Positions 29,546 to 55,089 of a stretch of DNA of 64,000 bases are shown here, one piece after another (the first letter of the stretch is position 1; every line of letters begins with the position of its first letter). The position numbers were made by a program, and so were the translations under genes. The notes under the pieces were generated by a model that worked only from the letters and a program-made list of their open reading frames with translations, was not told the origin of the DNA and made no database searches. Source of the stretch: Tubulanus polymorphus (lineage: Eukaryota > Animalia > Nemertea); the NCBI RefSeq assembly GCF_964204645.1, contig NC_134029.1:6200001-6264000 (forward strand). The letters are read 5' to 3'.

Positions 29546-32322
29546 CGGTTTCAATGTTAATATCCTCATCAGCGCGCATTGTTGCAGAAAATATTCGAAC
29601 GAATTACGTCATAAAAAAGGTAACTATCAGCGGGTCTGATCGATATTTCCACTTTGTTTCAGCGATATGAACGAAATGAAAAATTGAATTGAAAAAATAA
29701 GGAGAAAAAATTCGACAAGGCGGACCCAGGGGGTACCCAAAAACATGGCGCCTGGAAACCGTAAAATGGCTTATCGGGTAAGAAATCTTCGATTTTCAGA
29801 GTAGCACGTTTTCGAATACGAGTTAACTAGTGTATGATGATATGAGCAGAGACAAATGCCAAGGGGTTTCCTGACAGACTCATAAACTTAGAAGATTCGT
29901 GCTCAGTGACCCCGAAACGGTTGAATCAGTGGAGTGCGACCCTTGATACAAAATCCATCAATCACTATAGCACGAATGCATAATATTCGCCACTTCCGAG
30001 AATAAAAATCGAATCCCAACTGTGTATTTAGATATCACAAAGTACCTCGTAAATTTCGTCTCGTTAATTACATCGAGATCTCGTGTATACGCGCGTCTTC
30101 AGGAAATGATTCGTATTCAAGATCATATCTCGTTCAAGTTGTAATATTCGCTTGGAGAAGATAAAACCATTTAAATTCTATCGACCTGCTAAATATGAAG
30201 AAAATGCTTGGAAATTGTCACGTATATTCGTAAAGTCTGCAGGTTTACCGCCCATCGTAGATAAACTTACATTCTATATAGCTGTGTGGAATAGTTAGAA
30301 AAATCTTTGAACTTACCTCCCTCACTCGTTTTCACGGGAAAATGTGTTCCCGAAACAAAGCGAATCTCGCTTTATCTAGAATCGATAATTCTGTGTATTT
30401 TACAACATCTTGTGCATCATCGTTTCGCGCGTATAATTCACGATAATGTCACCAGTAGCGTGCGTAAAATACCCTGATCAAAACTAATTACGCTTAGTAT
30501 GAAGAGACGTAGCTAAAGCTACCTGAAGCTATTATCGGAATAATTTCATCAGGATTTCACCGTCGTTGTGCGAGCTACAAAAATAGCAACATTATTGGAT
30601 CTATAAATTGTCATTGACGCTCACTCCTTAACAAATAATATAGACGATCTAATCATTTTTTATTTCTATATCGGAAGTCCTCCTGCATATGAGGGCTATT
30701 CACGTACATGCCTTTTTAAAACAAATCTATTTTTAAAACTTTTGTTAAGAAAAATTAATTAGTACCATTTGAATGTGACCGCTTGCCGCATGCCGGATGT
30801 ATATGATTTCACGATCGAAAATGACTAACAGGATCAGTTGGTTTTTTATGTATCTTTATTGGCAACAATTTTTCAGCTTTTTACATATAATGGAAGCATA
30901 ATAACGATAACTGAGCAAGAATACGGGTTAAGCATTATATTCAGTATTGAGATGAACTTTAAGCACAAGGGAAAGGGACCTTGTGAGAATTCCTACCCAA
31001 GCTCTATGGTTTTAATGTGCCAGAACACGATACATTGGAAGGAATTGAAACGAACCATTAGAAAACGACATAGATTCTACAAACGAAAAATATGTAGCCA
31101 CAGCACCAACCGCTGGTCTAACGGGGTTGTTATGACATGCCCTGAGGGCATTCTAGGGGTTCGTGCTTAAGTATCTCCAAGTACCTTTTTTAACAGATTC
31201 ACTCGTACGAAATGTATGTAGAAAGGTTTTTAATTGTCGATTTCGATATCAGGTTCTTGTTGAAAATTGCACAAATGCACAATATTGATATAAAGAATGT
31301 CACTCAATATCAATGATTCACTAATTATTACTGCGCGTCCTTAAGAAACTCTACGCGCTATTGAAATTTGCTTATTGCCCTTTTTGCTATGTTGCTCAGG
31401 TTTGACCCATCCCGTAAATCCTGACAACGGGCCTGTTTTCAATATAACTGATCATCTGATTCCTGTGTGCCCTAAGAAACTTCTCGTGTTTAGCACGAAA
31501 GATTTCTTGACACGCAGGAAAATGAACAGAGGACAAATTTGATGTATCGTGCAACAGTCTATTCTAAAGTGATCGGTATGTATATTTCTTTCCGTATTTT
31601 TTCACTATACGCTGTTGTGACGTAATAGCGAGTACATTCTATATACATCGACGGTTTTTACCTTTTAGTACGAAAATAACTAAATGATTCTAGATAAAAT
31701 ACTGAAAGCTTTTTAAGCATAGTGTCTCCGAAATAGTAATATATTCGAATAATAAATGCAAGTCGCTAATACGGACCGGTCATTTTAGCGTATTAACATG
31801 TACGTACATAAATATACATATATATTTCGTTTATACATTACGTGATAGTTAAAAAGAGCCATTCGAATCTACCGCTTATGATTTGCGGTGAGGGCGCAGT
31901 CCAGCCGGAGTCATGTAAAGATTAGGGAGCCATTCAGGGCAGGAATGTTAAGGGAATGAAGTCTATACGGTCTGCTTAGTTGTATCAAGCACGGTTTAAA
32001 CTCTGAGACGAGAGCGTCGGAATAATCTAAGCTAAGACGAAGCAGATGCGAATATGTAGGATATTTTACATTTTGTCGATGCTAGAATGAGTCATGATAA
32101 CGGAACACAACGTTTGATGCCTCTTCACAGGACACAATAACGAACAACAATGGAGCCTAGGTATGAAGAAGAAATGGATCTACATATTTCAATAGAAATA
32201 TATCGTCGATTGAAACCGCAATCAACGATGAAACGATTTCTTCAAAAGATCAAATCAATATGAGCGGTGTCCTTACGAAAAGTGAAGATGCATCGAATGC
32301 TTGTTTCAGATTTAAGTAATTT

Positions 32323-35300
32323 CTAGTAAAGTAAGTCGTCTAATGTTTTGGGAATTGAATCTTGCCCTGAATTAAGGCTGGGTTCTTCGATTGATAGAAT
32401 TTCGCTGGGTCTGCGCAGAAGGGCCGACCTACCGGCTGGACCTGCGTGCTCGTGTTTACTAGCCAGACCCATCAACTCGCTATAAACGTTAAACGTTTCT
32501 CTACGCGACAGCAACCTATCATCCGCGTCAAAACTTCCGGTCGAACTGCCGTCTGCGATCATCGCCTGACCACGTGGTCGTGACATCATGTTTTTGTACC
32601 ATTCTCGACTTTCTTCATTCGACTCGAGATCGATTTCAATGATACGAGTTATGATAACCGCCGTTTTGCGCCACATGTCCATTGTTCCCCAAATCGGGAT
32701 AGTTCGTTCGCATCTCACTTTCACTTCCACCTGAGCGCGACCGTTTTTCACACCGAGTTCAACATTCTCGGAGACCGAATCGAAAGTTTCAATCGAATCT
32801 AAACTAGGAATAGTTCCGTCAGCGTGCACTAGGTGGGGCTCTCCGATAATCTCCTCTTCCTCGCGATCTACGTGTACATTTTGATTAACGGAAGTAACTG
32901 TAGGGTTTACGAGTTTACTTTTCGATTTGACAACGGAGTTTTGTTCCAAGTAATTTTCAGCTTGAGTGTAATAGTCGTAACGTCTTGGTTTATAGACATA
33001 TTCGGACCTTAGTTTATCCATGTAACTCCTATGATCGGTATAATCCAAATCTTCAGTTTCAATTTCGTTATTGTAAATATGGGTTCCAGTCGTCGTTTTA
33101 GAATGATCAGTTCTTGTCTCATTTACGTAAGTCGAAGGCTGGAAATCGGGTATACTCGGTCTTTGTTTACTCTTTCTTCGGGCGCTACCGTCGTATTTAT
33201 AAAAATACCGATCAGGCAACTTGACATCATCTAAAAGAACTGATTCTGAAATAGAAAATTGTGATGTTGAAACTTTTTCAAGTATCTAATCGTAGATATT
33301 TCCACCCACACCTTTATATCTTAAAGCTTATATTCTTATTTTACTGGCGTGACCTACCTGAGCCAAGCATTTACCAAAAATACCAGTTTGTAACAAACAA
33401 ATTGAAGAATACTTATTCGATAAAAAATAACATGGCGTAAGACATGTCAGATATGATTTGATATATGATGAATGTTATAATCGTGTAGAGAAGATTTTTA
33501 TTCCGAACTTGTGGCCGACTGGGACCTTTAGGTAATAAGTTTATTCTAACTTCACCAGTCGTCCAGCGTCTTATATCACATTATTTTGTATCAATTCCTG
33601 CAACTTCATATTGTAATTTAAATCGCGAATAAAACATTATAATCATTATTGTTCGCAGACATTTAGTATCATAAACAGGGTTCTTGTTATATATCATACG
33701 TATACAGTTATGCAGTGAGTTAGGACGTGCTCTAACTAGGTTTTGAAAAAATTATACATGTTCAAGTATATCATATAGACAGTCTGGCTTGTTATATTTC
33801 GTCGTCAGAATAAGTTTTGTTTACACTCGAGCGGGTGAAACTCTCTGTGTGAAAAGCTTCAAATATTTCTAGGAGTGCTTGGGTTAACGTATATACATTC
33901 CTAGCGAACAATCAAAAAAGGAAAATATAGTAAGAAGCCCATTATTTTAATTCATGTAATAATCTCGAAGTCTTATTCTGGACCTCTTGTATTGACAAAC
34001 ATACACGAAAAGCATAATAATCTGATGTGGATATTTTTCCGAAATTACGTTCTGTGGGTCTCTTCTGCGCAGTTCGAATATAAATCGGTACGTAGTACCC
34101 TTATTTTCCCACACAGTGAAAAGTTGGATGACTAGTTTCAATGGCCATGTGTGCATTGTTCGATAAGAACAATTGACACACAGAGCACTGAAAGTTACGT
34201 CGATTGCGGCGTACAGATTTGGTCTCAAATACGTAAGACTCTACACTATCCGAAATATCACATCCTGGTTATTTGAACAACTCTTTAATGCATATCTACT
34301 TATATCGTTCGTGTTTTGATAGGAAGTCAAGGATTGGCACGCAATAAGCCATGTTTATGTGATGAAACCAAAAAATTGCTGAAACTTTGTTATATTGTTA
34401 AGTTAACTAGTTATATGGTTAACTAATTTACCTAATCATTACTAAAATGTGTTAAACTACGAAAGAGTTGCAAACATGTTATTATAAATATGATTATTTA
34501 GCTCATTATTAGTTCGGGCAACGTTAGCTACGAATCCTATCTACGTATTAGAGCGCTTTGGTAAAACAGTTACGAGGCGAGGGTGCAGCGGTCAAAATGC
34601 ATGCAAACCCACCGCGTTCTGTGGTCGTACGTGTAACTCGCGTCGCCGGATTCCTCCTTTGTTGGTCTAAATGGGACTGGAACACTGCTTTCGGTAGCGA
34701 GTAGATAAAATCGGACTCGTCGATTCCTACCTTTTCTGGCGGCGGTGGAGGTCTATGGTAGTTTGTACGCGTTCTCGTGGTAAACGTTTCTTCACGTCTG
34801 CTCAGGTCGGGGTTGCTGTCGTACATCGGATTGGCTCGATTCACGTAAAACGACGTCTGAAATACATTACCATCATCTCCATATTCACTGAGCTTTCCGT
34901 CGTCATCTTCGACCACATTCATAAACTGTGGTGCTCCAGCAACGCCTTCTAGTTGATTTGAAATCAATATTCTTCCTCTCTCCACCTGCATGTCCGGCCG
35001 CTGTTCGCTGATGATGATCTGCGCGATATTTTTCGTTGTATCTTCACCGTCCGAACCGGACGACGATGAGACATCAAGTTTCATCGGTTTCTCGATGTTT
35101 ACGCCTGACATGTACCGCCGGCCGGATTCTAAGAACGCGTGGTCATCGTTAACGTCGACGCTAGGGTACGCGTCTTCGACATAAATACCACCATCGCCGA
35201 ACTCGAACATCGTATCCGAATGTTCTAGATTAACATCCATTAATGTTTCCTTATTTAAGTTCACGAAGACCGACTGCCCGGAGGTGTGACGTACCCTATC

Positions 35301-37544
35301 GTTGTCACCACTGAGACTGTAGGGGGCGCTGTGGACGTAGGTTTTGGTGGTCTCAGTGTTTGTTTGATTGTAAGCGGGTGTGTCGCGATAAATACGAATA
35401 TTGTCGCTTTGTGGAGACAGGACGTGATTCATCTGTCTATTATTTACTGTTTTCTCCGGAATTGTGATATAGATTGAATTATAAGCTGATTTCATACCTT
35501 TCTGTTTTTCTGCTTCAACTTGTTCGCTCGTCGTGTGTGTGGTTGATACACTCGTTATTGACTTGGAAATTGGACGTATTTCGACTTCGTTTACAGGTTG
35601 TTCGATTTCTTGTTCTACATAAACGTTTATCTCTCTATCAGTCGTAACCGGCTTCTCTTCGACCAACGGCGGTTCGTAACTCATACGTTTAACGATGCCT
35701 CTTATTTTTGGTAAATCATCTAGATTCGTCTTTTTATCGGCGAATGTTTGTTGAAGCGGTTCCTCTTCGACTTCGCGGTATTCTTCCACGTTTATCTCCG
35801 GTACAATTTCTACTTTATGGTGCTCGGGTTTCGGTGACGCCTTGCTACTTTTGGCCTCCGCAGGTTTGCTCTGGTACAGGGGGTTCTGTCGACGGACGTG
35901 ATAATTCGGTTTAAAAATGTTGTCCGAATTGTTACCCTTTTTTCCTTTTTTATGCTTTTTCGACGATTTCTCATTTTCCGACGGATCAGAATCCCGATGG
36001 ACGCGAACTATACGCTTAGTAGTTTCTATATTATCTTGTATTTCTTTGCGGGAATTGTGCGGGCTTTTCTGAACCTTAACGCCGACGGGCTGTGGCTTCT
36101 CATAACCATTAGTGACGTACTCGGTCTTCGCAACTTGCGTTTTTGCAGAGTGATTATTTGGCGCGTACTTTTCATGCTTGATGTGATGTTGTTTGCGAAT
36201 CATTTTCGGAGATATCGCTCGGAGAATGTTCGGTTTGCCATTCTCTCGTTTGACCACACGGACGTACTGATCGCCATTGTTTAGAGTAGGATTTTCAGCG
36301 TGATTTTCGGCTTTCACCGCTCGACTCTCAAGAAACCGGACATTATCAACGCGCGCAGGCTCAGATCGTTCAACTCGGATAACAGCATTGTTAAGATTCG
36401 GAATCTTATCAGCCTTGCCGCCTCCTTCCTTTTTAATGACTACGTTTTTATATCGCTTTTGTCCATTGTCCTCTGTTACTATCTTCGCGGGGATAGAGTT
36501 ATCGTCGCTCGTAGATGAACTACGACTTTCGATGCGGTACCTTTGTGGAATGTTATTCGAATCTTCAACAACTACGACCTTTTGTACGCCGCCGTGACCA
36601 GTGTCTAGATCACCGACTTTGATTCGTTTGCCTTCGATAACAACGATCTTATTCCCACTTTCGTCGTAATCTACGCGAACATTTGCCGTGTCTTTGTCAA
36701 CTTTTCCGTGTTCGTTGCCCATGTCGGTGGTAACGTAATCCAATTTGCGTTGATCTAGATCAGCATTCGATTTGTAGCGTTTTTCTAACGATTCCAAGCG
36801 TCTCAATCGTCTGTCGACGTCGGTTCCGTCACCGAATTTATTCAACAGCTCCTCTGTTTTGCCTTTCGTCAACACTCGTACCGAATCCGGCGAAGATGTC
36901 TGCGCAGCATAAAAATGTTTTGGATTTTCGAATTTTTCCTTCGTTTTTGATACACTGCCGCGTCTGACTACCCGCTTAATATGTCTAGCTTCTGTGGGAT
37001 TAGTCAAATAGATGTTCAAGTCGATACTTGCAGGCTCGCTTACAGCGTAACTACTGGCATTTCCGCTCGTGGTCGCTAAGCTAACGGGCTCACTGATGAC
37101 CATGGAACTGGCCATAGAACCAGAGCTCGGGAACGACTCGTCTTCGCTACTGTATACATTGCTTGTGTGAACTGCTCGTTGCTTATAGCGGGTATGTGAG
37201 TCACGAACATGGCCACGAACATTTTGAGTACTCTCGACATTTTCAGGCAATCTAGAAGTTGTCGATACCGATCTTAATTCAGTTACACGAGGACCCTTCA
37301 CCGTTTGAACGTTCGCCTGGTTTTCATTTATTCCGTACCCAATCATGGTGTCAGCGGTTGGTACCATAACACTCATTGGGGCGTATCCGTCGTAATAAAC
37401 ACTGCTTTCTTCGTGTTCCATGTCTTTTATACTTCTTGACTTGGGAGTTTCCTTTGACATCTTTTTCCCACCTTTTCTTTCTCTGCGAAACCGACGCCTA
37501 GCGTCACTGGTCTTTTGCTTCGTGTCTTTTGGCTTTCTTAACAT
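32323..37544 (-). CDS. Uncharacterised ~1284-aa, largely disordered protein (2 coding exons)
   Basis: Exon 34613-37544 (donor G|gtgggt) joins in frame (phase 1) to exon 32323-33245 (acceptor tttcag), total 3855 nt. 5'UTR intron 37575-37718; TATA-like element near 38005. No domain recognised. Confidence 0.7.
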
Positions 37545-39418
37545 TTTGCAACTTTTTTTTTAGCAAATCGCCATCTGTAACACGTATTTAAATATGTAGT
37601 AAATGACATATATAACATCTAAATTGAGGGGAATTTACCAGACATTCTTGTACCTCATACATTGAAATAAAGTTCCTCAGTAGTATATAAAGGTGTAACC
37701 GTTTTTGGCGTTACTCACCTGTATATTCAAGACGTGGGTGGTAACATACGCGCTCAAAGAAAATTACAACTCCCTATAACAAATATTCCGAACGTGATCT
37801 TCACGAATTCCATCGTTGTCTCAATATAGAATCTGCGCTACATTGTCGAATCTCAAATCCGCTAACGAGTAATTTCTGTGTATATGCAGTTCATTAGAGT
37901 GAGAAATACGTGATCAGTTTTCTCGAAGTGTCGAATTGTTTAACAGTGCTGGGTGCGCATGTAAAGCAACTAACAATGCCCGGCGGACAAGATTCTAACC
38001 GGTCTATATATAATGCGTCAATAGGCAGTCATTTTTTTCAATTACCACGGATTTCATTATGAAATTTGTAAAACCTTCCAACTCCGATCAACAGTGACGA
38101 TTCGTTTTAACACATTCAGGCTGGATATATAATGTGTTTAAATAGGTCGCAAATAGAATATAAAGAATTTCAGAAAATTAAAGTCGATCTCGAACTTTTT
38201 CGTAATGTTGACAGATTTCACAAACGTAAACCCAATCCATATAAATCCCATTCGGATCGTGCTTCGAAATATCACATTAGGAGTATAAACTGAAAATAAT
38301 AACAGTGATCGTTTATCAAAAGATAAATATAAAAATATTGCACAAGAAAGAAATGCGGGTAAATTGGGTCACACGCAGGAATGTCATTCGGTTAGCACGT
38401 TCGAATTGACTTGAAGCTCGTTTTTAGATTTTAAACTGGTCTGACGACATATTTTGATCACTGATAAAAAAATCAACAACATCCTTCCCATATAGATAAT
38501 CATATCTGGGTTAATAAGATAAATGCAAACTCTATAGTTCGTTTTCACAATACGGTCTTAAATCGTCGTATTTCTGCGTGGGACCTGTAAGTGTAAAAAA
38601 TAATGTAATCACATGAGTTGTTTATGCTCGATAATTCACATATTTTTCACACCATTTTTCTGATTACCTGCTACAAGTGGCTATTGGTAAGCAGCTACGA
38701 GCTTTTGGAATAAACCTTTAATCATCTGTGTTTTCTACAAACACTATGAAAATGGTGCGATTGCGCACTTGCTTTAAATATTGTCGTGGACGTCATTAGG
38801 TTCAATGACATATCTACCAATCTAAGACCAGCTTTGGATTAGTTTCAATTCATCTCGATTTTTTTGAAAGGTTCCCCTAGTAGAATGAAATTAAAAATGT
38901 TTCAAACACATTCATCCGAGTGTTTTTTGGCTAATGTAAATTCCTAGATAAAGATGGCTATGTAATTTCTCACGCCCACTGCCGTAGATTCATCTTCTCT
39001 AGGATGTATTCACCCGTACCCTCGATCCAACGTACTTGTACAACGCGTGAAGTGTTCTTCAAAGAGAAAATATTTAACAACAATTGCACAATGACCACTT
39101 GATCCCTTTTCTATATGGGTGTGTTTCTCCAGTACTGGATATCTAAAAATACAATACTGCGATTCGGAATAGAAATAGCTGTACATTTATTCTGTAAAAA
39201 GAGGAGTTAGACGCGTGTCTTTTTTTCGTGTGGATCTGTAATATGGGATCATCAAATGAAAGAAGCGTCAGATGATAAGTTGACAGAAAGTCTTTATTTG
39301 AAAGCTGATCAAGTAAGTTTGCAAACATTCCAGGAATCTTTCAAATTCTCGAAAGAATACCTGGATATCATGTCTCTATTTCTTTGGTTTTTTATAGATG
39401 TGTTCATGAATCACGATC

Positions 39419-41893
39419 ATGGGTGTTGTGTGGCTAAGAAGGGCTATCTTTTTCACTGGATTGATTGTAATCTGGCTTACATTGGTCGTCCTGAACTGTT
39501 TGAATATAGACTGGGCTAGTTTACAAAACCTGAGAAGCAGCGAAGCTATTCAAACGTACGCGATCGTAGCGATGACATGCGTCCTCCATCTGGGAGTAGC
39601 TGACGCCCTACTCCGCACTGTGGTAGTAATCATCCGCGGATGTAGTACGAGGCAGACCGGGTTACGAATGGCAGACGGATCGAAACTCAAACTAGTCATC
39701 AATTACAACTTATTGGCAATATCGGAAGAATGTATCGACCAGACGTTTACGAACATGTATCAAACGTTTATGAATAATCTATCACCGAACGTGACTTTAG
39801 TTTTAGTAAGTACGACTCCCACCGACGAACTTCGCGAATACTCGCTCGCCCAGGTGGCTGAATATCGGCTGCGGATCTACGACCGGCTGATTGCAGAGGG
39901 CGAATTATTTCTGGAAGGTCGTTTCAAAGCGGTCGATTCGCATAGACTTCATCATTTTTGGTTCGATCTTTGCGACCATTTTGGTCTCACCTACGTACAA
40001 GAGAAGTTAGCCGAATTATGCAGTCGTCACAGCTACGAATTCATCTGCGTCCATCGAGTGTCAAATGTCTTGAAAAAATGTGGGCAATATCAGGACCTAA
40101 TACTTTTATCGGAAGGCGAGGATCAAGCGTATACCTACACGGAAAAATGCCTGTATGGTAAATTTTGCCGGCACCACGGGGAACCTTTATTCCAAAACAC
40201 ACCCGATTCTAGAAGACTCGATGGTCGTCATTTCGATTACACGCTAGTTTTAGATAGCGACACCGTCGTACCGAGAGGTACAGCTTTACAACTCCTAGCC
40301 GCCGCCGCGGGGAACCCACGTCTTGCCGTTATCCAACCGAATATAAAACTGGAATTGCCGAAAGAAGCGACCTTCTTCATGTATCTGGAGCGTGTAAGAA
40401 ACGAGTTGACAACGGCCGAAAACAATGCCATTACAAATTTCTTAGGTCAAACTTTATTCTGCGGCAAAGCCTTAATTAATAATCAGTTATACGTAGATAA
40501 AATCATAGGTAGTCCGGTGAACCAATTGGAAATGATACCAGTTGACGTCATGAGTCACGACACATACGAATCGTTGATTTTGCACCCGTTTCCGTTAACA
40601 TCGGTTTCGTTAAAGGAACAACCCACTACAAATCTCATCACGTGGTCTCACAGACAACAACGATGGACTACGGGGGAAGTGATCAACGCCACCTATATTT
40701 GGAACTTGACATTCGGAATGCTGATTCGCTTGCTAAGAATCGTATTTTGGTGTAATTGCTGCGAGCCATTCCGGCGCGTGCGCAATTACCCGCCTTGTAA
40801 CCTCACCGGGCTTTACCTCGTGGCTAAAATTCATTTCAGTTTATTCATAAAACCATTCCTGATAACGTACATATTGCTGCACAGTTTTCTCTACGGAGTT
40901 AAGTTTCGCTATCCGTATATTCCACTAGGCGGTGCATTGGTCGTATGGTTGTTTCTTCCGCGTTTATTCGTCTTCCGAAGAAATCTGCTGAAATATTTGC
41001 CGCTGGAATTGTTGACGTCGATCTTGCAACAAACCTCTGATATCTTTGTCGGTACGTACCGTCTACTCGTGGGCATCGTCGCTGCGTTGTCCCGCCACCC
41101 GCTGAAATGGCTGCCACAGCGCATAATCGAACAGAAATACGAAGTGAAATCGAACTGCGGAATTTTTCTCGACTCGTTGCGTGTGTTCGGTATTTATGCC
41201 CTCGTCGCTTCTATAGCGTGTTTCACACTCGTTCTCGTAGACTTATACGGAATTTACTCGTCGTATTTATTGATATACGTAATGCTGGGAATAATTTCAC
41301 TGCTGCCGATTTATTGTTTCCTGACGGGGCTGTCGCCGATGTGCGGTCGACGTAAAGTATTCAAATTACATCTCAGTCCACCGTGCAACCATGCGCTAGA
41401 ACTGTCCAGTGTTAAACGCATTTACAGCATCGATACTTTGGTCAGACGACGGATGGAAGATTCCGATTTATCGGAACAGAATTTTGATCTATTTCACGCT
41501 GTGCAGCCAAGCGTTGACGACCATTCAAATTGCAGTATTTGTCATATGAGTTACGCAAATGAAATACTACCATCTGTCGAAGATGGACTCGGGCACTTCT
41601 CGGGGAATGGCCACGTGAATTCCGGTTTCGAATCCAATTTTACTCTCTACGAACAACCGTGGCATATTGATGGCCAATTTCCCGGTATTCACACGCGACA
41701 CTTCGATAGTGAAAATAACGAATTGACTCATCGTATATCAGTGGACACAATTAGTCTGTCTGAATTCCGCCCAATCAAAGAATCATTACAATCGTCAACA
41801 TCATCGTCATCATTATGTTCATCATCTTTATCATCATCACAGACGGAATCAGATTTTCTCCCTAATGGAGTGATCGGTGCCCATTTCTCTTAA
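39419..41893 (+). CDS. Intronless multi-TM processive GT-A glycosyltransferase related to bacterial beta-1,2-glucan synthases (OpgH/MdoH; Cgs/NdvB GT84 domain)
   Basis: 824-aa ORF: two N-terminal TM helices, then VHR..VLKKCGQYQDL, YTLVLDSDTVVPRG, GNPRLAVIQP, FLGQTLFCGKALI, VMSHDTYES and EQPTTNL..HRQQRWTTGE, several C-terminal TM helices, and a Ser-rich tail. AATAAA at 42067-42072. Confidence 0.8.
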   Translation: MGVVWLRRAIFFTGLIVIWLTLVVLNCLNIDWASLQNLRSSEAIQTYAIVAMTCVLHLGVADALLRTVVVIIRGCSTRQTGLRMADGSKLKLVINYNLLAISEECIDQTFTNMYQTFMNNLSPNVTLVLVSTTPTDELREYSLAQVAEYRLRIYDRLIAEGELFLEGRFKAVDSHRLHHFWFDLCDHFGLTYVQEKLAELCSRHSYEFICVHRVSNVLKKCGQYQDLILLSEGEDQAYTYTEKCLYGKFCRHHGEPLFQNTPDSRRLDGRHFDYTLVLDSDTVVPRGTALQLLAAAAGNPRLAVIQPNIKLELPKEATFFMYLERVRNELTTAENNAITNFLGQTLFCGKALINNQLYVDKIIGSPVNQLEMIPVDVMSHDTYESLILHPFPLTSVSLKEQPTTNLITWSHRQQRWTTGEVINATYIWNLTFGMLIRLLRIVFWCNCCEPFRRVRNYPPCNLTGLYLVAKIHFSLFIKPFLITYILLHSFLYGVKFRYPYIPLGGALVVWLFLPRLFVFRRNLLKYLPLELLTSILQQTSDIFVGTYRLLVGIVAALSRHPLKWLPQRIIEQKYEVKSNCGIFLDSLRVFGIYALVASIACFTLVLVDLYGIYSSYLLIYVMLGIISLLPIYCFLTGLSPMCGRRKVFKLHLSPPCNHALELSSVKRIYSIDTLVRRRMEDSDLSEQNFDLFHAVQPSVDDHSNCSICHMSYANEILPSVEDGLGHFSGNGHVNSGFESNFTLYEQPWHIDGQFPGIHTRHFDSENNELTHRISVDTISLSEFRPIKESLQSSTSSSSLCSSSLSSSQTESDFLPNGVIGAHFS

Positions 41894-42461
41894 AAAAAAT
41901 GGGAGTTCAATACTTAAAATCCCCAAATGAACTGGATCCCGGGCATATGGTTCATTTTAGGAGATAGAGGCAGACGGTCTAGACATAAACGTACTAGACG
42001 TAAAGGTATCACGACTTAATCACAGAATATGTAGGCATTCAAGCGTATAAAATACATTGTTGTAGAAATAAATCATTTTTATTCCAATCGTTTTTGGTAA
42101 TTCTAACAAATTCATCATTTACAGCTTGCAAACCCTACAATACTAGTTATAAATATTCACGCAATGTCACCTACGTCAAAAAATTTAATTGAGACATCAT
42201 TTTAACTATTCGTATCATTACACATAACATCAGAATATACATCACACATGAATTATATATCCATTGTCGTTCTGATGTTTTACTATTTTGGTTAAGAATA
42301 AGGTACCAGCAACGTCCGAGTTCCTACTAGAAAAGCTGGTGGATCATCACTTGTCACAATAGTATTGCCGGTATCTAATGAAAGTGGTAAATCTAGGCGA
42401 AAACACATGAAACATGGTCATATAGTTACATCATCGGCAAACGAAGATGATAAATGTATCG

Positions 42462-43343
42462 TCAGATTCTAGCGAATTCAAATTCACGGGACATATTATT
42501 GTTCCACAAGTTGAAATTATGGATCGGGTCGATTCGCAAAGTGTGAACACGCGCTGATGTAACAGTCTGTCCATCTTTCTTCCTTATCGTATCTAGAATA
42601 TCCATCGCGTTCTGGAAACGATATGACATAATCAGTTGTTTGAACAATTTACTGTCTTTGGCCAGTTTCGGAATTTTGTCACTTGTTAACTCGGAAACTG
42701 CTCGAGGTCCGAGCCCTGGTTGATGTTGAATCGTAATTGCCATGGCAGGAACCAACTGCATGTTGTTGTGGTTGTTGCGGTGTTTCTGTACCGCTTCGAT
42801 CGCGAGTTGTTTCTCGTTTTCGGTTTGAGTTTCCAGTTCGGGCGGCGGTCGTATGGACAGACGAGAATTACTAACAGGCGGGGATGACGTTCTGCTCAAA
42901 ACGTTCTGATATTCCGGGAAGACGTCCGTAATGCGCTCATACAGAATATCCTCGTAACATTTCATTGCAGCGTACTGCGCCTCGGCAGAGAGCAGGGATA
43001 GGAAACGAGGGGTGGGCGGCAACTCGATACGCTCTTCTTCCAGTATCGATGACGTCGCCGAATCCCGTCTGCTTTGTTGACGCGGGAAACCTTTGAAAAC
43101 GCGATTGATCGACGTGCGTCGACCGAACATACCAGCATGGCTGATGTTGGTAATGCTCGGTCGGCCGATACCGGCTCGCGACGATCGACGACCGGGATAC
43201 AGTGTCTGTTCCGACGAGTCCCTTCGCTCCTCGTCCTTATGAAAAGCCACTGCTTTCGTATGTCCGCTAGACTGTGAGCAAACGCTCGTCCTGCGACTAG
43301 CCGGCTGCGTTTGAATGTTCGGTAGCTTGTTTCTATCGCCCAT
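42462..43343 (-). CDS. Intronless 293-aa uncharacterised protein with many RRxS sites
   Basis: Long ATG-initiated ORF in good context (aaaATGG). Helical core FLSLLSAEAQYAAMKCYEDILYERI. Minus-strand AATAAA at 42078-42083. Confidence 0.7.
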   Translation of the reverse strand: MGDRNKLPNIQTQPASRRTSVCSQSSGHTKAVAFHKDEERRDSSEQTLYPGRRSSRAGIGRPSITNISHAGMFGRRTSINRVFKGFPRQQSRRDSATSSILEEERIELPPTPRFLSLLSAEAQYAAMKCYEDILYERITDVFPEYQNVLSRTSSPPVSNSRLSIRPPPELETQTENEKQLAIEAVQKHRNNHNNMQLVPAMAITIQHQPGLGPRAVSELTSDKIPKLAKDSKLFKQLIMSYRFQNAMDILDTIRKKDGQTVTSARVHTLRIDPIHNFNLWNNNMSREFEFARI

Positions 43344-45374
43344 TTTGAAAATTCATACGATTACACGATTAAGTCTATAATACACGATGTAATATAACCA
43401 AGTTTTAAATCAGCGATGAATAAACGCGATATCGGCTGCAGTTAGCAACGGTTGCTGGCATTATTTGAATCGACTTCCTGTTTGACAAATATTCGCCGCA
43501 AATCCAATTTCTACTAGGAGCTATCGTTAGTTTTCGTCGAAGAAATAAACGGCAATACTTCTAAACAGCTCCAGTTTTTTCGTCTTTGAGATATATATAT
43601 CACCTCTACAATCGAAAGGAAATCACCGCACGGGTTTCGACACCACTGTCTAAATATAATGAATGATTTCTGCTTTTGTTATTTACACAATGACCAACTA
43701 AACATTTCATTCAATTAATAAGCTTAATCGTGGAAGTACTCATGGGTTCATGAGTTCGCAAAACCTATACACACAATAAAATCCCGTTTTGCTGGCGTAA
43801 ATATGAAATGAGTAGCGTTGACAGCGATTCTGTTTACGATTTGAATTTTGCCGTTATTTGTATTGACAAAGTCCAGGCCCGCGTTTCGCAACGATCGGTA
43901 TCCAAACCACGGTTTCAAGTGATCAGATATTCACCAAAGTCTTAACGATGCGCGTTGTACAGTCAATTATGGTGAACTGGTGACTTTTTGCGCATTGAGG
44001 ACAAAATCGTTTCGCTTTCACGCTGGTCGCAAAGCAGACTTTCCACTGGGCGCACTGCAAAAAAGCCGAACAAATCAGTTATTAATTTTGTACGTACATA
44101 CAAAACAGCAATCATAAAAACCGGGACGCGTTGATTGTGTTAGTATGTGTATACGTCAAAGATTGACTGAAAAGCTTTAGTGTATTTCCTCGAATTCTAA
44201 CTCCCATTTATTTTCGAATAAATGTCGTCTTAATACCGACGACTAATCGATTCATCCCCTTATCAATAAGCGGCATACATTCTATTCAATATCAGCGCCG
44301 ACGCGAGTTTCTCGCAACGAGAATGTTTGATCAAAACACCAGATATTTGGCAGTTAAACAAGTCCGAACACCTGTCGAAAAAACTATACCTGTTATACCA
44401 GTTTTAAATGCGATATTTATGAAGTTCATTACACGTCTCTAAATTTTGTGCGACACGAGTCTTGGGAAATATCATGGTCTAAGAATTATTGCTTACCGAA
44501 AGAGATCGAACAGGAACAAAAATAAATGAACATTGAACTGTTTTGTTAGATGGAACGCAGGCGACATTTGAAAATGACGCTTCATAAAAATGCAATAAAA
44601 ATGTAATAAAGTATAAGATTTTTTCAATAGGTCACCGGCTAAAGTTTAGCAAATTGTACTCGGCTATATACATACCTATAATGGATGCGAATTTACTATT
44701 CGGTATAAAATGTAATTTCTTCAGATGTTATAGTTTAAATAGTTTTAATTCTTTTGGGAAGAAATTTGCCAATTTCGATGCAACGCTAAAGAATGTTTCG
44801 AAGTGATAAGGTGGCTACCGCAGTGTAAAAATGATTCATTTGCTTTAGAACGTAAACAGGTAACTATCAACTTAATAGATATTTTAAACTTTGAAAACTA
44901 GCAAAACTACTTACGCGCTTAATTTGTGGTCTCGATGTACCGGAAACTTCAGTATCGGGGAGTATCGATCGTGGTGATAGACATAATGTACTCTCTTGGA
45001 GTAACGAATATTAATGAATATAACGCTTACTGGTGGTTTCTACGCGTGTGGCCAGCGCTCCACTCGTCGACACGGAAAATTAGATTAAACCTCTTTACAC
45101 GGGCTGATTGCTCCTCGCACCCTCGTCGTTTAACAAAATAATACCCTCGTGCATGGCTGAATTAGTTAATCCCATTTTATTTCAGCTCGATATGTTCATT
45201 CGTAATCATTGAGTATAATAGTATATACGAACTGTTTCTCAATGACCATTTCATTATATTAATCCGCAACGGCTTCAATCGTTAGATCGAATTGCATTGA
45301 AATTATTATCATTAATTACAATGACCATGATTTCAAACGATATTGATTGCTTCCAATCTACATTATGAGATACA

Positions 45375-45483
45375 GGGCACGGTTTTATAGACTGGTATTA
45401 CCTTTAATCCGGGGGCTAACACAATTCATTATCAATTGAGTTAGCCCCGGGTTAATGGTAATACTAGTCTATAAAACCGGCCC
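45375..45483. mobile_element. ~110-bp palindromic MITE-like element
   Basis: cggttttatagactggtattacctttaatccgggggctaac versus gttagccccgggttaatggtaatactagtctataaaaccg. Confidence 0.75.
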
Positions 45484-46726
45484 CGGGACATTCCTTATTT
45501 TACCTCGACTAGACGTTGATCATATTCTCGTCTAATTTCAACAAAAATAACGCTGGAATGAAAACTTTTAGTTTGATTTAAACATGATGTATCCTTCGCA
45601 AAGCAGTTGAAGTGCATAGAGTCTGCTTTCTAAGCATCCAGCCATAATACGCATGATGCTTGTAATTATACATATGTACATATGTATATCGCATAAATGG
45701 CAAATGAATATTATCATTATTGCGTCGCGTAGATATGAAATTCGAAAATGTTACAATGTCCGTGGCTTCACGCATACTGATACGTGAGAAGTAAACGCCT
45801 ATAAGGTTCAACCAAATCGACTGGACGCAAAGGTAGCAGTGGGTTAGAATAAAGAGTATTGAGATCACAATTATTATTTGGTCAAGTCAAGCCCTTATCA
45901 AATGATCGAATGATCAAATAAAGCGTTCATTCATTCATTCATTCAACCTTAAAAATGAAAAAAAACTGCCATTCTTTTTTATTCTTATTTTCTAGCGGGA
46001 AGGTAAATATAAATTCACATTAACAGTGACTCATATGTATGGGGAATAGTTGGGGAAAATGAATTATACATGTATATCCTATTTGATTTACTTTTTAACA
46101 TGTATATATTTGAATACCTCTATTATAGCAATTATATATTATAAATAGCGAATTTATCGATTTAACATAATAGAATATCAAATAATACTTCAAGTGAACT
46201 TATAAATACTTCCTAGTACGTGTTAATAGTCTAATCTTACATGGAAATCAATTTTTCATTATCCTCCAGTAAGTTGTGCGTTATACAGCTACAAAGATCC
46301 GTGGATGATCTTGGAAGCGAAGAAAATGGAGGTTTGTCTTAAAGATCATTCTGTAGTATTTTTCTAAGCTCTATTCATCATTCCAGTATTCTCTTCGTGA
46401 GAATATTAGGTATGAGCATATACTTTCATGTTTTTCGGTTTGAAAAACTTCACTTTCTTTTATTTATCGCTGAAATCAAGTCTTAACAACTGTGTTACTT
46501 GGCCTTGCTGTTTTGCTAATCGGTGCATTTAAAAATGGTTTTCTTTTTTCTGGATACACTTTGAATTGGGTGGAAAGAAACGACTGTATCCTAAATTAAG
46601 GCTTTACCTCGAGGAAAAATTACCTCTTTGAATGAATGATTTTATTTTTCTCTTTACTTTCGGGGTAAACTAAAAATCATTTTATGATAAAATCAATTTA
46701 TGATCGATTGTTGAATGTTCTAGCGT

Positions 46727-48128
46727 ATGAATCTAACACATACGACGGCAACAACAACAACAACAACAACGTTGATCGATAATACGTCGCTCAATACAAC
46801 GTTAACCGATATTCTGAACCGAACTGTGGAATGCCCCGCCGTCAACAAAACAATCGGTAGGATTACACACTATTATTACTCAATCCGATTTTCAATCAGG
46901 ATTTCTATTCAACAGTTCCTTTTCTTCAATTTCGTGGTTCCGGTTTGATCTGTAACGTTATTTTCCAATTTTCAGTAAACTGCTCCGATAGTAGGGAAAC
47001 AAGTTGTAAGTAATTTGAAAAGCTCCTGACTACTCAATTCTACTTCTACGGCTTTTTGAAATTAATTTGAAGATTTCTTAAAAGAAGAACACTGCATATC
47101 AACTCAAACTGTATATCAACGTTAATTCGATTTATGTTGGTTTGCAGATTTATCCGGCTCATGGATATCTCTAGATTGGGCAATCGGTATCACAGTAATT
47201 GCGTCAATCGAACTGATGATCATTATACTGATGTATGACAAAATATTACGTGATTCGCATCGTCAGCAAACAGATTTGCGAGGTAAATTGACTTTTTCTT
47301 ACCGTTTTAAGGTGTGAAGAACACTAAAAAGTTTTGTTTGCAATAGAATCACTGAAGTAGTACAGAATTGAATTGATTAGGCGTAATGTGAAAAGATTCT
47401 AATATTTGTAATTCAGCTAACGTTAATACTACTAAAGATTTGTATCTAAACCTATCTGCTTATATCAATCTAGGGTGAAATCGCATTTCGTAGAATAGAG
47501 TAACTATTTGTATTTTGTCATTACAACAGATTCATCGAAAACTAAGAGAACCAGATTTGCCCCGAGTTCCGTATTTTTCCGTCCCAATTCTGGTGGAGAC
47601 GATTCCGTCAACCTCTTCGCTGACCGGAACGCGGAGTCCGGTTTTCCAAGCGACCGACAAGCAGCGTCGAGCTCCATCGATGCAGCGTCGGATTTTTCGC
47701 AACGACGTTGGAATAGTGAAAGACAGCACTTCAGTAACAGACGATCGATGTCCGAAATGAATTTGGCTCAAATGGGATCCAGAAATAAGACTCGTCTCGC
47801 ACCGCCACCACCGCTACCTCCGAGTCAAATTAGAGCTCAAGGTTACTGTATGGGACAGGCTGGAACTTCAAATACACTTCCATGTAATTTCACCAGTGCG
47901 GCACTCGAGCCGAGGGAAACTTCCTACATAAATCTGGATGATATGGAGATTGAGAGCTCGATTCCACCGGATCTTCCGAGTATTAGTGATATAGAGGGCG
48001 AATTCAGAGTACATTACGAGAGACCGTCATTGCAGTATTCTATGTATACTTCCGACGAACCATATATACCTACCCCACCACCACCGACTTGGAAACCACA
48101 ACCACCTCCGACAACATCTGAAATCTAG
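46727..48128 (+). CDS. Single-pass membrane protein with a Thr-rich, N-glycosylated ectodomain and a Pro/Tyr-rich tail (>=297 aa; further 5' exons possible)
   Basis: Exons 46724-46856, 46976-47005, 47148-47282 and 47530-48128 join in phase 1. TM segment WAIGITVIASIELMIIILMY. Tail contains PPPPLPP, TSYINL and YIPTPPPP. An acceptor just before the ATG leaves the true start uncertain. Confidence 0.65.
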
Positions 48129-48464
48129 AGGATTTGATCAAAGATTGCAAAAATATCGTGATTTCATATCTTTAAATTCTATTTGACAGTTTATTTTACG
48201 ATCAATCATTTCGTTATGACACATAAGACATGAACACTCAATAGATTGTATTCAAGACCGATGTGATTATTATTCTTCGTATCATTCCGGATGACGAGTC
48301 TTAAATTGTGTTTGTTAGGTCACTTACACGAAATACCGTGATTTATCGAGGGAACATTTTATTTCAAATCCGTGAGAAAATAAAACACTTGACCAAATTT
48401 GCATAAAAATGTACAATTTTTTCTGTAGTTCGTTGAACCTAGCATAAGCCAACTAGTATATCTC

Positions 48465-49716
48465 CTAGACGTGTTTTCCTGGCTTTCTCATTCCAGTCAC
48501 TTTACAATGAAAACCGGTGAATGAATTGATTAATTGCCTTCTGAAAACCCTCAACGTTGCCATGTATATGAAGAAGTTGACGCAGAATACAAACTCTCGA
48601 GGAAAATAAAGGATTCTTTCCAACCCATGACAATACATTTTGCTAATGGCGTAAGTTCCATTCGAAAAAGGGTCGATGCGATGATTGACCCAGATCTGGT
48701 AAACTACGTACTCAATGAAACTTTGCAAAAACTTGAATAATGAATTCGGTAAAACAAGTGCTATGTATACAACGACTACAACAAGGAGGGTTTTGCTGGC
48801 TGCGGACTGATGACGGTCTTTCCTATCCGCACAGAGAGCAGCACCAGATCGTTTATTACGTAATACAGCAGTATGTACTGATACTATAATGATAACTACA
48901 GATGGGATTATGTCGTGAAGAAATACCTTTAATGCAAGTAAAAATACCGTATGATATCCGTTTATTCCTAAGTCACGACACTGTAAACTACTAAACGACT
49001 CCTTTCGTATGCGGATCGTGCGCAAATAGATTTCTTTAATCCTAACAGCGTTATCCAAATTCATAACAAATGACCACAAAATCACGACGGCCACAACAAT
49101 TTTGCGTCGATTGACGGTGAAATGTTTCATGTGAAAGAAGGGAAAACGAATCGAAACCAATCTCTCCATAGCAATCACAAGAACTGTGTAGTTTGATACA
49201 GATAAGGCCTGTTGAAAGAATTGATAAGTCAATAAACACAATGGAATCAAACGTCTAGGTAAATATTCAAAATAGTAATAATAGTAATATAATGATGGGC
49301 ATAATTTGTAGTGTTTAGCTACCGTTAACGAGTTATCCATGCACTCTTTCGGAGCCACCCCGACATGGTGTAGGAAACGCCGCATGTAGTACGGGAACTC
49401 CTAAAAACCGAACAGTACATAAATTTGATCGGAACAGGCCAGAGTTATTAGATAGGGGAACCTTTAACGAACTGACTGACATTTCCGACACTTTATCAGA
49501 AGAATGATAGTAAGACCATTGAAGACACATCCCAGTGGAAACAGGAACAATCTAGTCGAGTATTTGTTATAAATGCTAAAATGGCGAATGAACTGATTAA
49601 ACGAATTAAGCAGTAGCCTTTCGCCGCACGATTATCCGTACGCTATCAATGGTAGTGGTCGAGACTGTCGAATTTCGATTTAGTGCTCTTTCCAAAACGC
49701 TGGTAAAGTTGTGCAT
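48465..49716 (-). pseudogene. Disrupted paralog of the class A GPCR at 52883-54133
   Basis: Spans 1252 nt versus 1251 in the intact copy (+1 base near 49606) and has an in-frame TAG at 49401-49403. The remaining 306-aa ORF lacks TM1-2. Confidence 0.85.
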
Positions 49717-50387
49717 ATTCAACTGCACTGCCACTGACGACACAACGAGCGTAAAATAGACGTTACTGCTACCCGAACTTTTTTAGATATTTCTCTGTTT
49801 CGCATATTGTGAAACCGATCTCTGAAATAAAATGTTGAGTAAGCTTCAAGCAATACACGGAGCCTCTAGCGTTTCATTCTCTTTCGGTTGGAGACAACGA
49901 GTGACGTTTGATACATTCTGAATATACAAGTAGTTCATATACGTTGCATGCTATGTATGAAAATCCTACAGAAGCATAAAATAGTGAGCAGCAAATAAAT
50001 TTCTCAATTCTTTGCCAAGAATATCCATTCTTGTATTTTCTGTTACGGTAGTCTTTTTAGTGGATGATTTTAGATTGGCAACTCGGTGTACTAGAGTGCT
50101 TATCAAGGATTTAAGTAAAGAATCGGAGGCTGTACGTATAAGGTCGCAGTTGTGTTTGGGAAGGCTCTCTGCGTACAGCGACAGTAATTCAAAATTGTCA
50201 ATCTGAATAATTGAGAAAGGGTAGACTTCGTACTTTTTGATGAATGATTTTCAATAACAGGCAAAATGTCATATTTTGTGGATACAGAGAAGGATTTGAT
50301 GACCCAAATTGACTCTCAGACCCCTAAAAATTCAAAATTATTTATGATATAGATGCCCTTCCATAGCTGAGCAGTACTCTGAAACCA

Positions 50388-50737
50388 GGCTAGATCCATC
50401 CTGGATCCAGAGATAAGGCGCCTCGTCACGCACCGCCACCACCGAGTCAAATTAGAGCTCAGCGTTACTGCATGAGACAGGCTGGAGCTTCAAATACACC
50501 TCCACGTGGTTTTACCAGTGCAGCACATGAGCCGAAGTAAACATCCTACATAAATCTGGATGATATGGAAATTGAGGGCTCGGTTCCATCGGATCTTCCG
50601 ACTATTAGTGATATAGAGTGCGAATGCAGAGTTCATTACAAAAAACCGTCATTGCAGTATACTTCCAAAGAACCATACCTACCCCACCACCACCAACTTT
50701 GAAACCACAACCACCTCCGACAATATCTGAAATCTAG
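50388..50737 (+). pseudogene. Older degenerate copy of the membrane-protein last exon
   Basis: Similar to ~47770-48128, with indels and a stop codon (ccgaagtaa). Confidence 0.8.
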
Positions 50738-51144
50738 GTGATTTCATCGACGATTGCAAAGGAATATCGTTATTTCTATTTCTCAATCATATTTGACAGT
50801 TTCATCTTAACGATCTATAGTACCATTATAATACAAAACACGTAGATAATCAACAGATTATATTCAAGACCGATGTGATTATTATTTCATTAACCTGCGG
50901 CCTACCGGATGGTGATTTACTAAAGGCTGAGGCACTGTTATATCTATTATGCCACGAACATGAAATATCGTCGTCTATCAGGAAAACATCTTTTTTTGAA
51001 TGTTCCGTGAAAAAAATAAAAAAACTTAACCAAATTTGCAAAAATATACAAATACTAATGTTTCTCTATTCTGTCGAACCATAAATCAGCCGAATCGCTT
51101 CTTTCTCCGGACATTGTTCACTCTCTTTGTTGTTTGTTCAATTT

Positions 51145-52543
51145 AACTGCTCCGATAGTAGGGAAACAAGTTGTAAGTAATTTGAAAATCTCCTGACTAC
51201 TCAATTCTACTTCTACGGCTTTTTGAAATTAATTTGAAGATTTTTTTAAAGAAGAACACTGCATATCAACTCAAACTGTATATCAACGTTAATTCGATTT
51301 ATGTTGGTTTGCAGATTTGACCGGCTCATGGATATCTCTAGATTGGGCAATCGGTATCACAGTAATTGCGTCAATCGAACTGATGATCATTATACTGATG
51401 TATGACAAAATATTACGTGATTCGCATCGTCAGCAAACAGATTTGCGAGGTAAATTGACTTTTACTTCCCGTTTTAAGGTGTGAAGAATACTAAAAAGTT
51501 TTGTTTGCAATAGAATCACTGAAGTAGTACAGAATTGAATTGATTAGGCGTAATGTGAAAAGATTCTAATATTTGTAATTCAGCTAACGTTAATACTACT
51601 AAAGATTTGTATCTAAACCTATCTGCTTATATCAACTGCTTGGAAGATTGTTTAAATGAACCGGAACCGAATTTCCAATTATGTACTTCGATTTAAAAAA
51701 GAAAATTCTGTAAATTAGACCGTCGAGCAAACAACTATATCTGTACTTCCATTTCCGATTTCAAAATCAAACCCCCTGTTTCGCTCCCGGCAGGTGTGGT
51801 GGGTCTGTAAGGGACACTCAATCAAAAAATCTAACGAAATTTACAAACAAAATAAACAACAGGGACAATCCCTATTTTAAGATCTATATCAATCTAGGGT
51901 GAAATCGCATTTCGTAGAATAGAGTAACTATTTGTATTTTGTCATTACAACAGATTCATCGAAAGAAAACCAGATATGCCCCGAGTTCCGTATTTTTCCG
52001 TCCCAATTCTGGTGGAGACGATTCCGTCAACCTCTTCGCTGACCGGAACGCGGAGTCCGGTTTTCCAAGCGACCGACAAGCACCGTCGAGCTCAATCGAT
52101 GCAGCGTCGGATTTTTCGCAACGACGTTGGAATAGTGAGAGACAGCATTTCAGTAACAGACGATCGATGTCCGAAATGAATTTGGCTCAAATGGGATCCA
52201 GAAATAAGCCGACTCGTCTCGCACCGCCACCACCGCTACCTCCGAGTCAAATTAGAGCTCAAGGTTACTGTATGGGACAGGCTGGAACTTCAAATACACT
52301 TCCATGTAATTTCACCAGTGCGGCACTCGAGCCGAGGGAAACTTCCTACATAAATCTGGATGATATGGAGATTGAGAGCTCGATTCCACCGGATCTTCCG
52401 AGTATAAGTGATATAGAGGGCGAATTCAGAGTACATTACGAGAGACCGTCATTGCAGTGTATACTTCCGACGAACCATATATACCTACCCCACCACCACC
52501 GACTTGGAAACCACAACCCCCTCCGACAATATCTGAAATCTAG
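51145..52543 (+). pseudogene. Duplicated, disrupted copy of the membrane-protein gene (last three exons)
   Basis: Lacks the 46724 exon and the acceptor of the 30-nt exon. Has a 5-nt deletion at the start of the last exon and a 7-nt deletion near 52457 relative to copy 1. Confidence 0.8.
51636..51884. mobile_element. 249-bp insertion with target-site duplication, absent from copy 1
   Basis: Empty site atctgct-tatatcaa-tctagggt at ~47454-47476. The filled site has tatatcaa at 51628-51635 and 51885-51892. A related copy lies at ~56610-56825. Confidence 0.85.
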
Positions 52544-52882
52544 AGGATTTGATCAAAGATTGCAAAAAAATATCGCGATTTCATATCTTTAAATTCTATT
52601 TGACAGTTTATTCTACGATCAATCATTTCGTTATGACACATAAGACATGAACACTCAATAGATTATATTCAAGACCGATGTGATTATTATTCTTCGTATC
52701 ATTCCGGATGACGAGTCTTAAATTGTGTTTGTTAGGTCACTTACACGAAATACCGTGATTTATCGAGAGAACATTTTATTTCAAATCCGTGAGAAAATAA
52801 AACACTTTATCAAATTTGCAAAATAATGTACAATTTTTTCTGTATTTTGTTGAACCTAGCATTAGCCAACTAGTATATTCTC

Positions 52883-54795: not shown

Positions 54796-55089
54796 CAGTC
54801 AAATTAGAGCTCAGGGTTACTGCATGGGACAGGCTGGAGCTTCAAATACACTTCCACGTGGTTTTACCAGTGCAGTACATGAGCCGAGGTAAATATCCTA
54901 TATAAATCTGGATGATATGGAAATTGAGGGCTCAGTTCCATCGGATCTTCCGACTATTAGTGATATAGAGTGCGAATTCAGAGTTCATTACGAAAAACCG
55001 TCATTGCAGTATACTTCCGACGAACCATACCTACCCCACCACAACCAACTTGGAAACCACAACCACCTCCGACAATATCTGAAATCTAG
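54796..55089 (+). pseudogene. Degenerate last-exon copy (duplicate of 50388-50737)
   Basis: Sequence similarity to 50388-50737 and a stop at ccgaggtaa. Confidence 0.8.

Follow-up and report, generated by a model that had tools for sequence, protein, structure and literature searches.

A gene of the ribbon worm Tubulanus polymorphus from an undescribed eukaryotic family related to bacterial β-1,2-glucan synthases

The 64,000-nucleotide stretch of the Tubulanus polymorphus genome analysed here (contig NC_134029.1, positions 6,200,001 to 6,264,000; hereafter the window) contains a single uninterrupted open reading frame (ORF) for an 824-aa membrane glycosyltransferase. We find that the protein belongs to an undescribed eukaryotic family of β-1,2-glucan-synthase type, related to the bacterial enzymes Cgs and OpgH, and that this family is wider and older than the original prediction, made from the DNA letters alone, had held. 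The gene model of that prediction stands: the frame is intact and intronless, and the named motifs begin at 39806 (VSTT), 40073 (KKCGQ), 40247 (VLDSDT), 40271 (PRG), 40313 (NPxxAVIQP), 40439 (FLGQ), 40457 (FCGKALI), 40550 (MSHDTYE), 40616 (EQP) and 40652 (RQQRWTTGE). The two N-terminal transmembrane (TM) helices, GT-A core and several C-terminal TM helices that it had proposed are seen in an AlphaFold2 model, its AATAAA is present, and the tail it had described as Ser-rich and ~180 aa long comprises 179 aa past residue 645, with 18% Ser clustered near the end (Table 1).

Both neighbouring genes are spliced, as had been predicted: contigs of sequencing run X4 skip 37574>37719 and 44054>44915, both CT..AC on the + strand. 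The kind of this run is not on record; its contigs behave like RNA, because canonical introns of both neighbours are skipped. Three short X4 pieces lie inside the gene (40853-41037, 41228-41397 and 41781-41977) and give a weak hint of transcription. The start codon is flanked by A at -3 and G at +4. The database model of the same gene (P0002) has 741 aa and begins at Met84; the 824-aa start is preferred because homologues align across both N-terminal helices. A candidate intron in the 5' untranslated region (UTR) opens with GTAAGT at 39313 and closes with TTTTTATAG ending at 39397; positions 38068-40737 are outside the X4 contig coverage. Two upstream ATGs in weak context open a 3-codon in-frame upstream ORF (39398-39409) and an out-of-frame one that overlaps the start (39406-39519), and these ATGs could dampen translation.

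Table 1 Features of the glycosyltransferase gene, numbered from the first letter of the window
Feature	Position	Strand	Basis
ORF, 824 aa, Cgs/OpgH-related membrane glycosyltransferase of the eukaryote/giant-virus clade	39419..41893	+	sequence, profile, tree
Two N-terminal hydrophobic helices, residues 2-73, predicted TM1-2	39422..39637	+	AlphaFold2 model; aligns to Cgs from residue 401
S131-T132-T133; T132 = Cgs D527 column (first Asp), lost family-wide	39809..39817	+	alignment
KKCGQYQDL family signature; K219 = Cgs R586	40073..40099	+	alignment
DxD motif D279-S-D281 = Cgs D624/D626	40253..40261	+	alignment
SHD; D381 = predicted catalytic base (= Cgs D739)	40553..40561	+	alignment
RQQRWTTGE; R415 = Cgs R773, RW motif	40652..40678	+	alignment
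Four C-terminal hydrophobic helices, residues 462-636, plus interface helices; WLPQR segment between TM4 and TM5	40802..41326	+	model
Tail of low model confidence, residues 646-824; unconserved across the family; end rich in Ser	41354..41890	+	model, alignment
Candidate 5'-UTR intron	39313..39397	+	consensus ends only
AATAAA, candidate polyadenylation signal	42067..42072	+	sequence

Taken alone, the protein gave no Pfam match and no single-sequence match in the Protein Data Bank (PDB). When the family profile was searched against the PDB, two Cgs sequences were the only matches at E<=1 (E 1.2e-5). The AlphaFold2 model, built on a 35-row alignment, has a mean predicted local distance difference test score of 79.5; it is confident over residues ~1-640 and of low confidence over 682-824, and its hydrophobic helices (N-terminal 2-28 and 40-73; C-terminal 462-490, 501-518, 579-609 and 617-636) flank the GT-A core. 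Foldseek placed Cgs at ranks 1-3 (E 9.8e-15) and chitin synthases at E ~1e-5 (TMq 0.22-0.25), and VIA-align also ranked Cgs first (Z 23.7, root-mean-square deviation 3.5, 507 aligned, model 1-641 on Cgs 401-982), so that the predicted structure matches the TM and glycosyltransferase module of Cgs. OpgH was compared by sequence only, with no OpgH structure among the fold matches, so the fold favours Cgs by default.

Profile scores agree with the fold. A profile of 79 eukaryote/viral rows scored β-1,2-glucan-synthase-type proteins at 43-201 bits in 30 of 33 bacterial rows, with 11 cores of a bacterial sister group at 104-201 bits, 11 Cgs at 43-86 and three OpgH at 54-79, while three other Escherichia coli GT2 enzymes reached at most 0.8 bits; another E. 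coli GT2 (L014) and P0040 were dropped for want of a detectable core motif. In NCBIfam, the MdoH models were the sole glycosyltransferase matches. A tblastn search with an oyster member returned 31 plasmid records, and the 25 listed comprised 12 mdoH, four 'glucoamylase family' and nine unannotated records; the one 'glucoamylase family' record inspected is Cgs-like. These comparisons make it very improbable that the protein is a diverged chitin, hyaluronan or cellulose synthase inherited along the usual eukaryote line. Such enzymes do have the processive GT2 fold in common with it (BcsA Z 18.3, hyaluronan synthase Z 15.3), but Cgs scores more than 5 Z units higher, none of them appeared in the PDB profile search, and the family profile gives the cores of BcsA and PgaC <1 bit. 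Chitin, hyaluronan and cellulose synthases have (T/G)ED or EDR/DDR at the catalytic base, and BcsA and PgaC have TED where the query has SHD. Profile, fold and motif tests thus all point toward Cgs/OpgH and away from these synthases, and the kinship proposed in the original prediction is borne out.

The best fold match, the GT84 module of Agrobacterium Cgs (also ChvB/NdvB; PDB 8RF9/8RF0), has the same order of TM1-2, glycosyltransferase core and TM3-6, with six TM helices common to both. A bridging alignment, read together with the available part of PMC10901819, gives the query equivalents of Cgs D624/D626, D739, R773 and R586 (Table 1), and the two proteins also have in common a Y/HxxN helix end, QP, FxGKG/A and RWxxGD/E. 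In contrast to Cgs, the query is without the N-terminal domain, the cyclase and the GH94 phosphorylase; D527 is replaced by T132, the IF1 region is helical without a primer-Tyr loop, and the WNxxExxWMGW insertion is absent, while the query has an insertion of its own of ~45 residues between KKCG and DxD. OpgH/MdoH is, like the query, a stand-alone membrane enzyme with SHD, DxD and RW (RxxRW). The query differs from it in having FxGK (FCGKA) for YWGHN and LVS[A/T/V] (LVST) for ILSD. No MdoG match, as a sign of an opgG/opgD neighbour, was found among the 20 window ORFs scanned, which is expected for a eukaryote. The query falls outside both OpgH and full-length Cgs but, judged from its sequence and model, would work like their catalytic module.

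Relatives of the gene are widespread. A first homologue search returned 63 proteins, one of which is the window's own, and the survey of animal homologues that had been called for found relatives at about 34-40% identity in bivalves (Sinanodonta, Mizuhopecten, Mactra, Mercenaria, Mya, Dreissena, Ylistrum, Pinctada and Crassostrea), gastropods (Haliotis and Littorina), the nemertean Lineus and three hemichordates. Automatic annotation has named the Crassostrea and Pinctada records 'glucans biosynthesis glucosyltransferase H'. Crassostrea gigas XP_011437382.2 and the other OpgH-labelled mollusc proteins, a label that is automatic only, are of the same family and architecture (35-39% identity), the query being more divergent and having its own tail. 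The oyster protein falls in an Atlas cluster of 63 members, 90% of them eukaryote and mostly molluscs, whose named neighbours are OpgH clusters at 0.93-0.94.

A full-library search gave 145 matches. The named non-animal members come from Polykrikos, Noctiluca and Gymnodinium, which we take to be dinoflagellates, and from Chromosphaera perkinsii, presumably an ichthyosporean. Members of ~600 aa also occur on IMG/VR contigs, three of five labelled GVMAG, often adjoining topoisomerase II. Loci with a compact member of 600-650 aa (L001-L004, L048-L050, L060-L070 and L073) lie on giant-virus-type contigs with a GC content of ~0.21-0.30. Phage records gave no match, and viral scans with P0228 and P0188 gave no locus. 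Most rows that we call eukaryote/viral are metagenome proteins assigned by tree. The clade has a signature that the query carries in full: YNLL, LVS[AVT]T, [KR]KCGQYQDL, YTLVLDxD, GK, SHDTxE and RWxxGE. Some relatives are fused to other domains, P0152 to a formin FH2 domain and P0180, P0187 and P0197 to a second, different GT2 domain. A literature search, mainly of open papers, found no study of this family; the horizontal gene transfer compendium PMC13342648, available in part, may list a member. Two supplementary files of the hemichordate genomes (PMC4729200), a part of that source, contain no match to MdoH or glucan.

Two trees place the family. In a quick tree of 112 rows, the 79 eukaryote/viral rows form one clade (Shimodaira-Hasegawa-like approximate likelihood ratio 98), with no firm mutual order of Cgs, OpgH and the new clade. 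In a more careful tree of 45 rows, the 27 eukaryote/viral rows form a clade (100/96) inside the Cgs/OpgH radiation, joined first by the bacterial sister group (89/83, not starred) and then by OpgH (95/90), with Cgs outside; the root of this order rests on long branches. The non-Cgs/OpgH outgroup of both trees consisted of the long-branch BcsA, PgaC and one other E. coli GT2, and these three enzymes alone stand for the chitin, hyaluronan and cellulose synthase side of the phylogeny that had been proposed. The query groups with the animals plus some dinoflagellate-type rows (98/97). Animal monophyly was neither recovered nor rejected (approximately unbiased test p 0.193), and because it was not rejected, the position of dinoflagellate-type rows within the animals is no proof of transfer. 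Placed as it is among bacterial β-1,2-glucan-synthase-type proteins, the family is likely to be bacterial in its ultimate ancestry, as the original prediction had supposed, but old. This animal most likely inherited the gene from an animal ancestor. The transfer domesticated by this animal that had been proposed finds no support, the gene being part of a wide eukaryote/giant-virus family that spans protostomes and deuterostomes.

That this lineage received the gene recently from bacteria, or that the assembly contains a contaminant join, is largely refuted and hardly credible. The nearest sequences are animal (35-40% identity), with animal matches reaching E 1e-122 and bacterial ones E 2e-6 or worse, whereas what speaks for a recent transfer is that the coding region has no intron and that annotation gives the relatives bacterial names. 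The GC content at third codon positions (0.49) and the observed/expected CpG ratio (1.45) lie within the ranges of eight other long ORFs of the window (0.41-0.53 and 1.06-1.53). One contig of run X1, possibly the run from which the assembly was made, extends across the gene and its two neighbours (33611-45409), and in raw DNA reads of a second study (run X5) every one of the 30 bins of 31000-46000 is covered, without a joint within the gene. The same reads show mixed alleles at three ORF positions and no stop or frameshift. The gene is thus a nuclear gene of a diploid-looking eukaryote and not a contaminant, as the original prediction had assumed. The window also encodes rhodopsin-family G-protein-coupled receptors (GPCRs), a C2 protein and a Kelch protein according to a Pfam scan, which is consistent with an animal. 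Runs X6-X8 match only the Ser-repeat stretch. We discounted a 308-base skip at 41115>41424 (AC..TT, one X2 contig) and a 2-base gap at 41814 (one shallow X3 contig), both of which probably reflect noise in the assembly.

The bacterial sister group consists of 'KKWGxYQDL' proteins from Candidatus Saelkia tenebricola (Omnitrophota) and from metagenomes, and it is sister to the clade in both trees (91; 89/83). These proteins have the YQDL signature in common with the family and most keep the first Asp; hhalign relates the family to them with a probability of 99.9% (E 3.7e-32, 481 columns). The type is rare, with six of 401 Omnitrophota genomes scoring better than E 1e-30. At two of seven sister loci (L005 and L006), where the protein is of a long form, GH144-like Glycoamylase and MdoG-family genes lie directly upstream, and at L006 a UDP-glucose pyrophosphorylase gene lies downstream of the synthase gene. 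The best PDB match of the GH144-like gene is XCC2207, a β-1,2-glucanase according to the available part of PMC12102758. These two loci (L005 24-11123, L006 3-13378) form an Omnitrophota operon of three very large proteins in which the synthase carries a long insertion. In Omnitrophota genomes (L026, L027, L029, L032 and others), the glycosyltransferase module also stands inside open frames of 4,000-24,000 aa. At L046 (6677-12798) and L047, an OpgH-like gene is followed by genes for an HlyD protein and for an outer-membrane efflux protein fused to a Glycoamylase domain, an arrangement that is possibly a glucan export system.

On balance, we favour the view, by analogy to Cgs, that the query is a membrane glycosyltransferase likely to build a linear β-1,2-glucan or a short sophoro-oligosaccharide from nucleotide-sugar glucose on the cytosolic side. 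The DxD motif would bind metal and diphosphate, D381 would activate the acceptor hydroxyl as D739 does in Cgs, and glucose would be added with inversion in a metal-dependent manner. A linear product is suggested because the N-terminal, cyclase and phosphorylase domains of Cgs are absent. In the available text of PMC10901819, D739 of Cgs is the catalytic base and D527 coordinates uridine diphosphate (UDP); the OpgH DxD is treated in PMC11389396, likewise available in part. Among the eukaryote/viral rows, DxD is kept in 79/79, SHD in 78/79 and RW in 79/79.

Several observations weigh against this assignment, foremost the missing first Asp, which is the main reason for doubting an unchanged donor and product. 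None of the 79 eukaryote/viral rows (5 gaps) has Asp in the D527 column, versus 25 of 33 bacterial rows, and the 74 filled eukaryote/viral rows read A 53, V 14, G 3, T 2 and S 2. Because this UDP-coordinating residue of Cgs is absent, the donor may differ. In addition, the Cgs primer loop with Tyr694 (IF1h) is a plain helix (319-342) without a conserved Tyr in the query model, the identity of the query to Cgs is 13-17%, and the linkage made by GT2-type enzymes is not readable from sequence. All scores against the MdoH models lie well under the cut-offs (18 versus 419 bits for the equivalog; the best of 14 family members, 58). Those neighbours of the other five sister loci that were scanned include no β-1,2-glucan gene, with a mannose-1-phosphate guanylyltransferase-like gene near one of these loci, and the scanned neighbours of giant-virus members gave no glucan-related clue.

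It is therefore possible, though rather doubtful, that an enzyme of the same ancestry and fold has acquired a changed chemistry, in which another nucleotide-sugar, sugar, or lipid or protein acceptor would lead to a non-glucan polymer or a glycoconjugate. The loss of the first Asp in all 74 filled rows with the other catalytic residues fixed, the absence of a primer Tyr and of a partner domain, the five sister loci and the fact that the available parts of two reviews (PMC11842490 and PMC12102758) name no animal β-1,2-glucan would all fit such a change. However, β-1,2-glucan is the product of both characterised relatives flanking the clade, according to the available parts of PMC10901819 and PMC11842490, the SHD, FxGK and K/R-K-x-G motifs common with these relatives are retained, and the bacterial sister protein P0241 is also without the first Asp. 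An autoglycosylation Tyr was considered and rejected as a family feature: a Tyr stands close to the Cgs Y694 position in many molluscs but not in the query or the hemichordates.

That the family is active and only this species' copy is decaying or non-catalytic is improbable. The query has the longest branch among the named animals (0.85), and it has lost three of 42 near-invariant residues (E142S, I304V and R473F). The long branch also counts against the favoured assignment, as do the three read-supported substitutions in the ORF, which are all non-synonymous but too few to weigh. On the other hand, the 824-codon frame is open in the raw reads, DxD, SHD and RW are intact, and the query retains 39 of 42 columns that are >=90% conserved (93%) versus 57 of 208 variable ones (27%). 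The original prediction saw the missing Asp correctly and took VSTT as a caveat for this protein's activity; because the loss is fixed across animals, protists and viruses with the other catalytic residues unchanged, it is a family trait and not decay of this copy. The Lineus longissimus copy P0044 has SHA for SHD and hence no predicted catalytic Asp, an observation that fits decay and is likewise unfavourable to the favoured assignment; its close relative P0139 keeps SHD.

If the query is a β-1,2-glucan synthase, its product would need a route out of the cell. Cgs is a compact six-helix bundle with no export channel, and its glucan is exported by the transporter Cgt, according to the available text of PMC10901819; a similar bundle in the query would release the chain on the cytosolic side, and a separate exporter would be needed. 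In six of ten long family proteins checked, the glycosyltransferase module sits in one or two copies between the Walker A and Walker B motifs of nucleotide-binding domain 1 of an ABCC-type ATP-binding cassette (ABC) transporter; two of the ten show one flank only and two none. These ABC-inserted transcripts are assemblies. The insertion is indirect evidence that fits a coupling of synthesis to export. Insertions of the ABC type, with the module in one or more tandem copies, are seen in P0130, P0133, P0134, P0141 (from Gymnodinium smaydae), P0143 and P0146 and at L052, L054, L055 and L057.

Taken across the family, the evidence raises the tentative possibility, to which we give a little less than even weight, that molluscs, ribbon worms including this animal, and acorn worms produce β-1,2-glucan themselves, using a stand-alone synthase that came from bacteria in ancient times, as would dinoflagellates, with ABC-fused make-and-export forms, and giant viruses. 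If so, β-1,2-glucan would be a widespread, overlooked polymer of marine eukaryotes and a new class of animal polysaccharide. A role as a secreted matrix or an osmotic agent in the animal is a guess, and the mucus, tube, egg coat and osmoprotectant roles of the original prediction are likewise conjectural. In the available parts of the reviews PMC11842490 and PMC12102758, β-1,2-glucans are bacterial molecules of osmotic adaptation, symbiosis and virulence, and no eukaryotic β-1,2-glucan synthase is named, while a cyclic β-1,2-glucan from the alga Chlorella is cited in PMC11842490. With a conserved candidate synthase present in oysters, scallops, clams, abalone and acorn worms, β-1,2-glucan production can be tested in farmed animals. 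Being stand-alone and of six helices, the enzyme would serve as a minimal model for the catalytic module of Cgs, the family would be a natural test of the role of the first GT2 aspartate, and the ABC-inserted forms give a hint of the way in which a synthase that has no channel gets its product out.

Elsewhere in the window, long single-exon ORFs without a convincing Pfam match lie on the minus strand at 32323-33285, 34548-37559 and 42462-43352, the latter two each having a spliced 5' exon. A short high-copy repeat at 45373-45484 has a contig depth ~100-fold over its flanks, and a (GGTGT)n satellite at 17290-17660 gives rise to open frames in most reading frames. The region 46978-55807 contains tandem duplications, of which 47461-50363 and 51885-54783 are 95% identical and older copies ~77%, and these carry intronless rhodopsin-family GPCR genes and a repeated exon.

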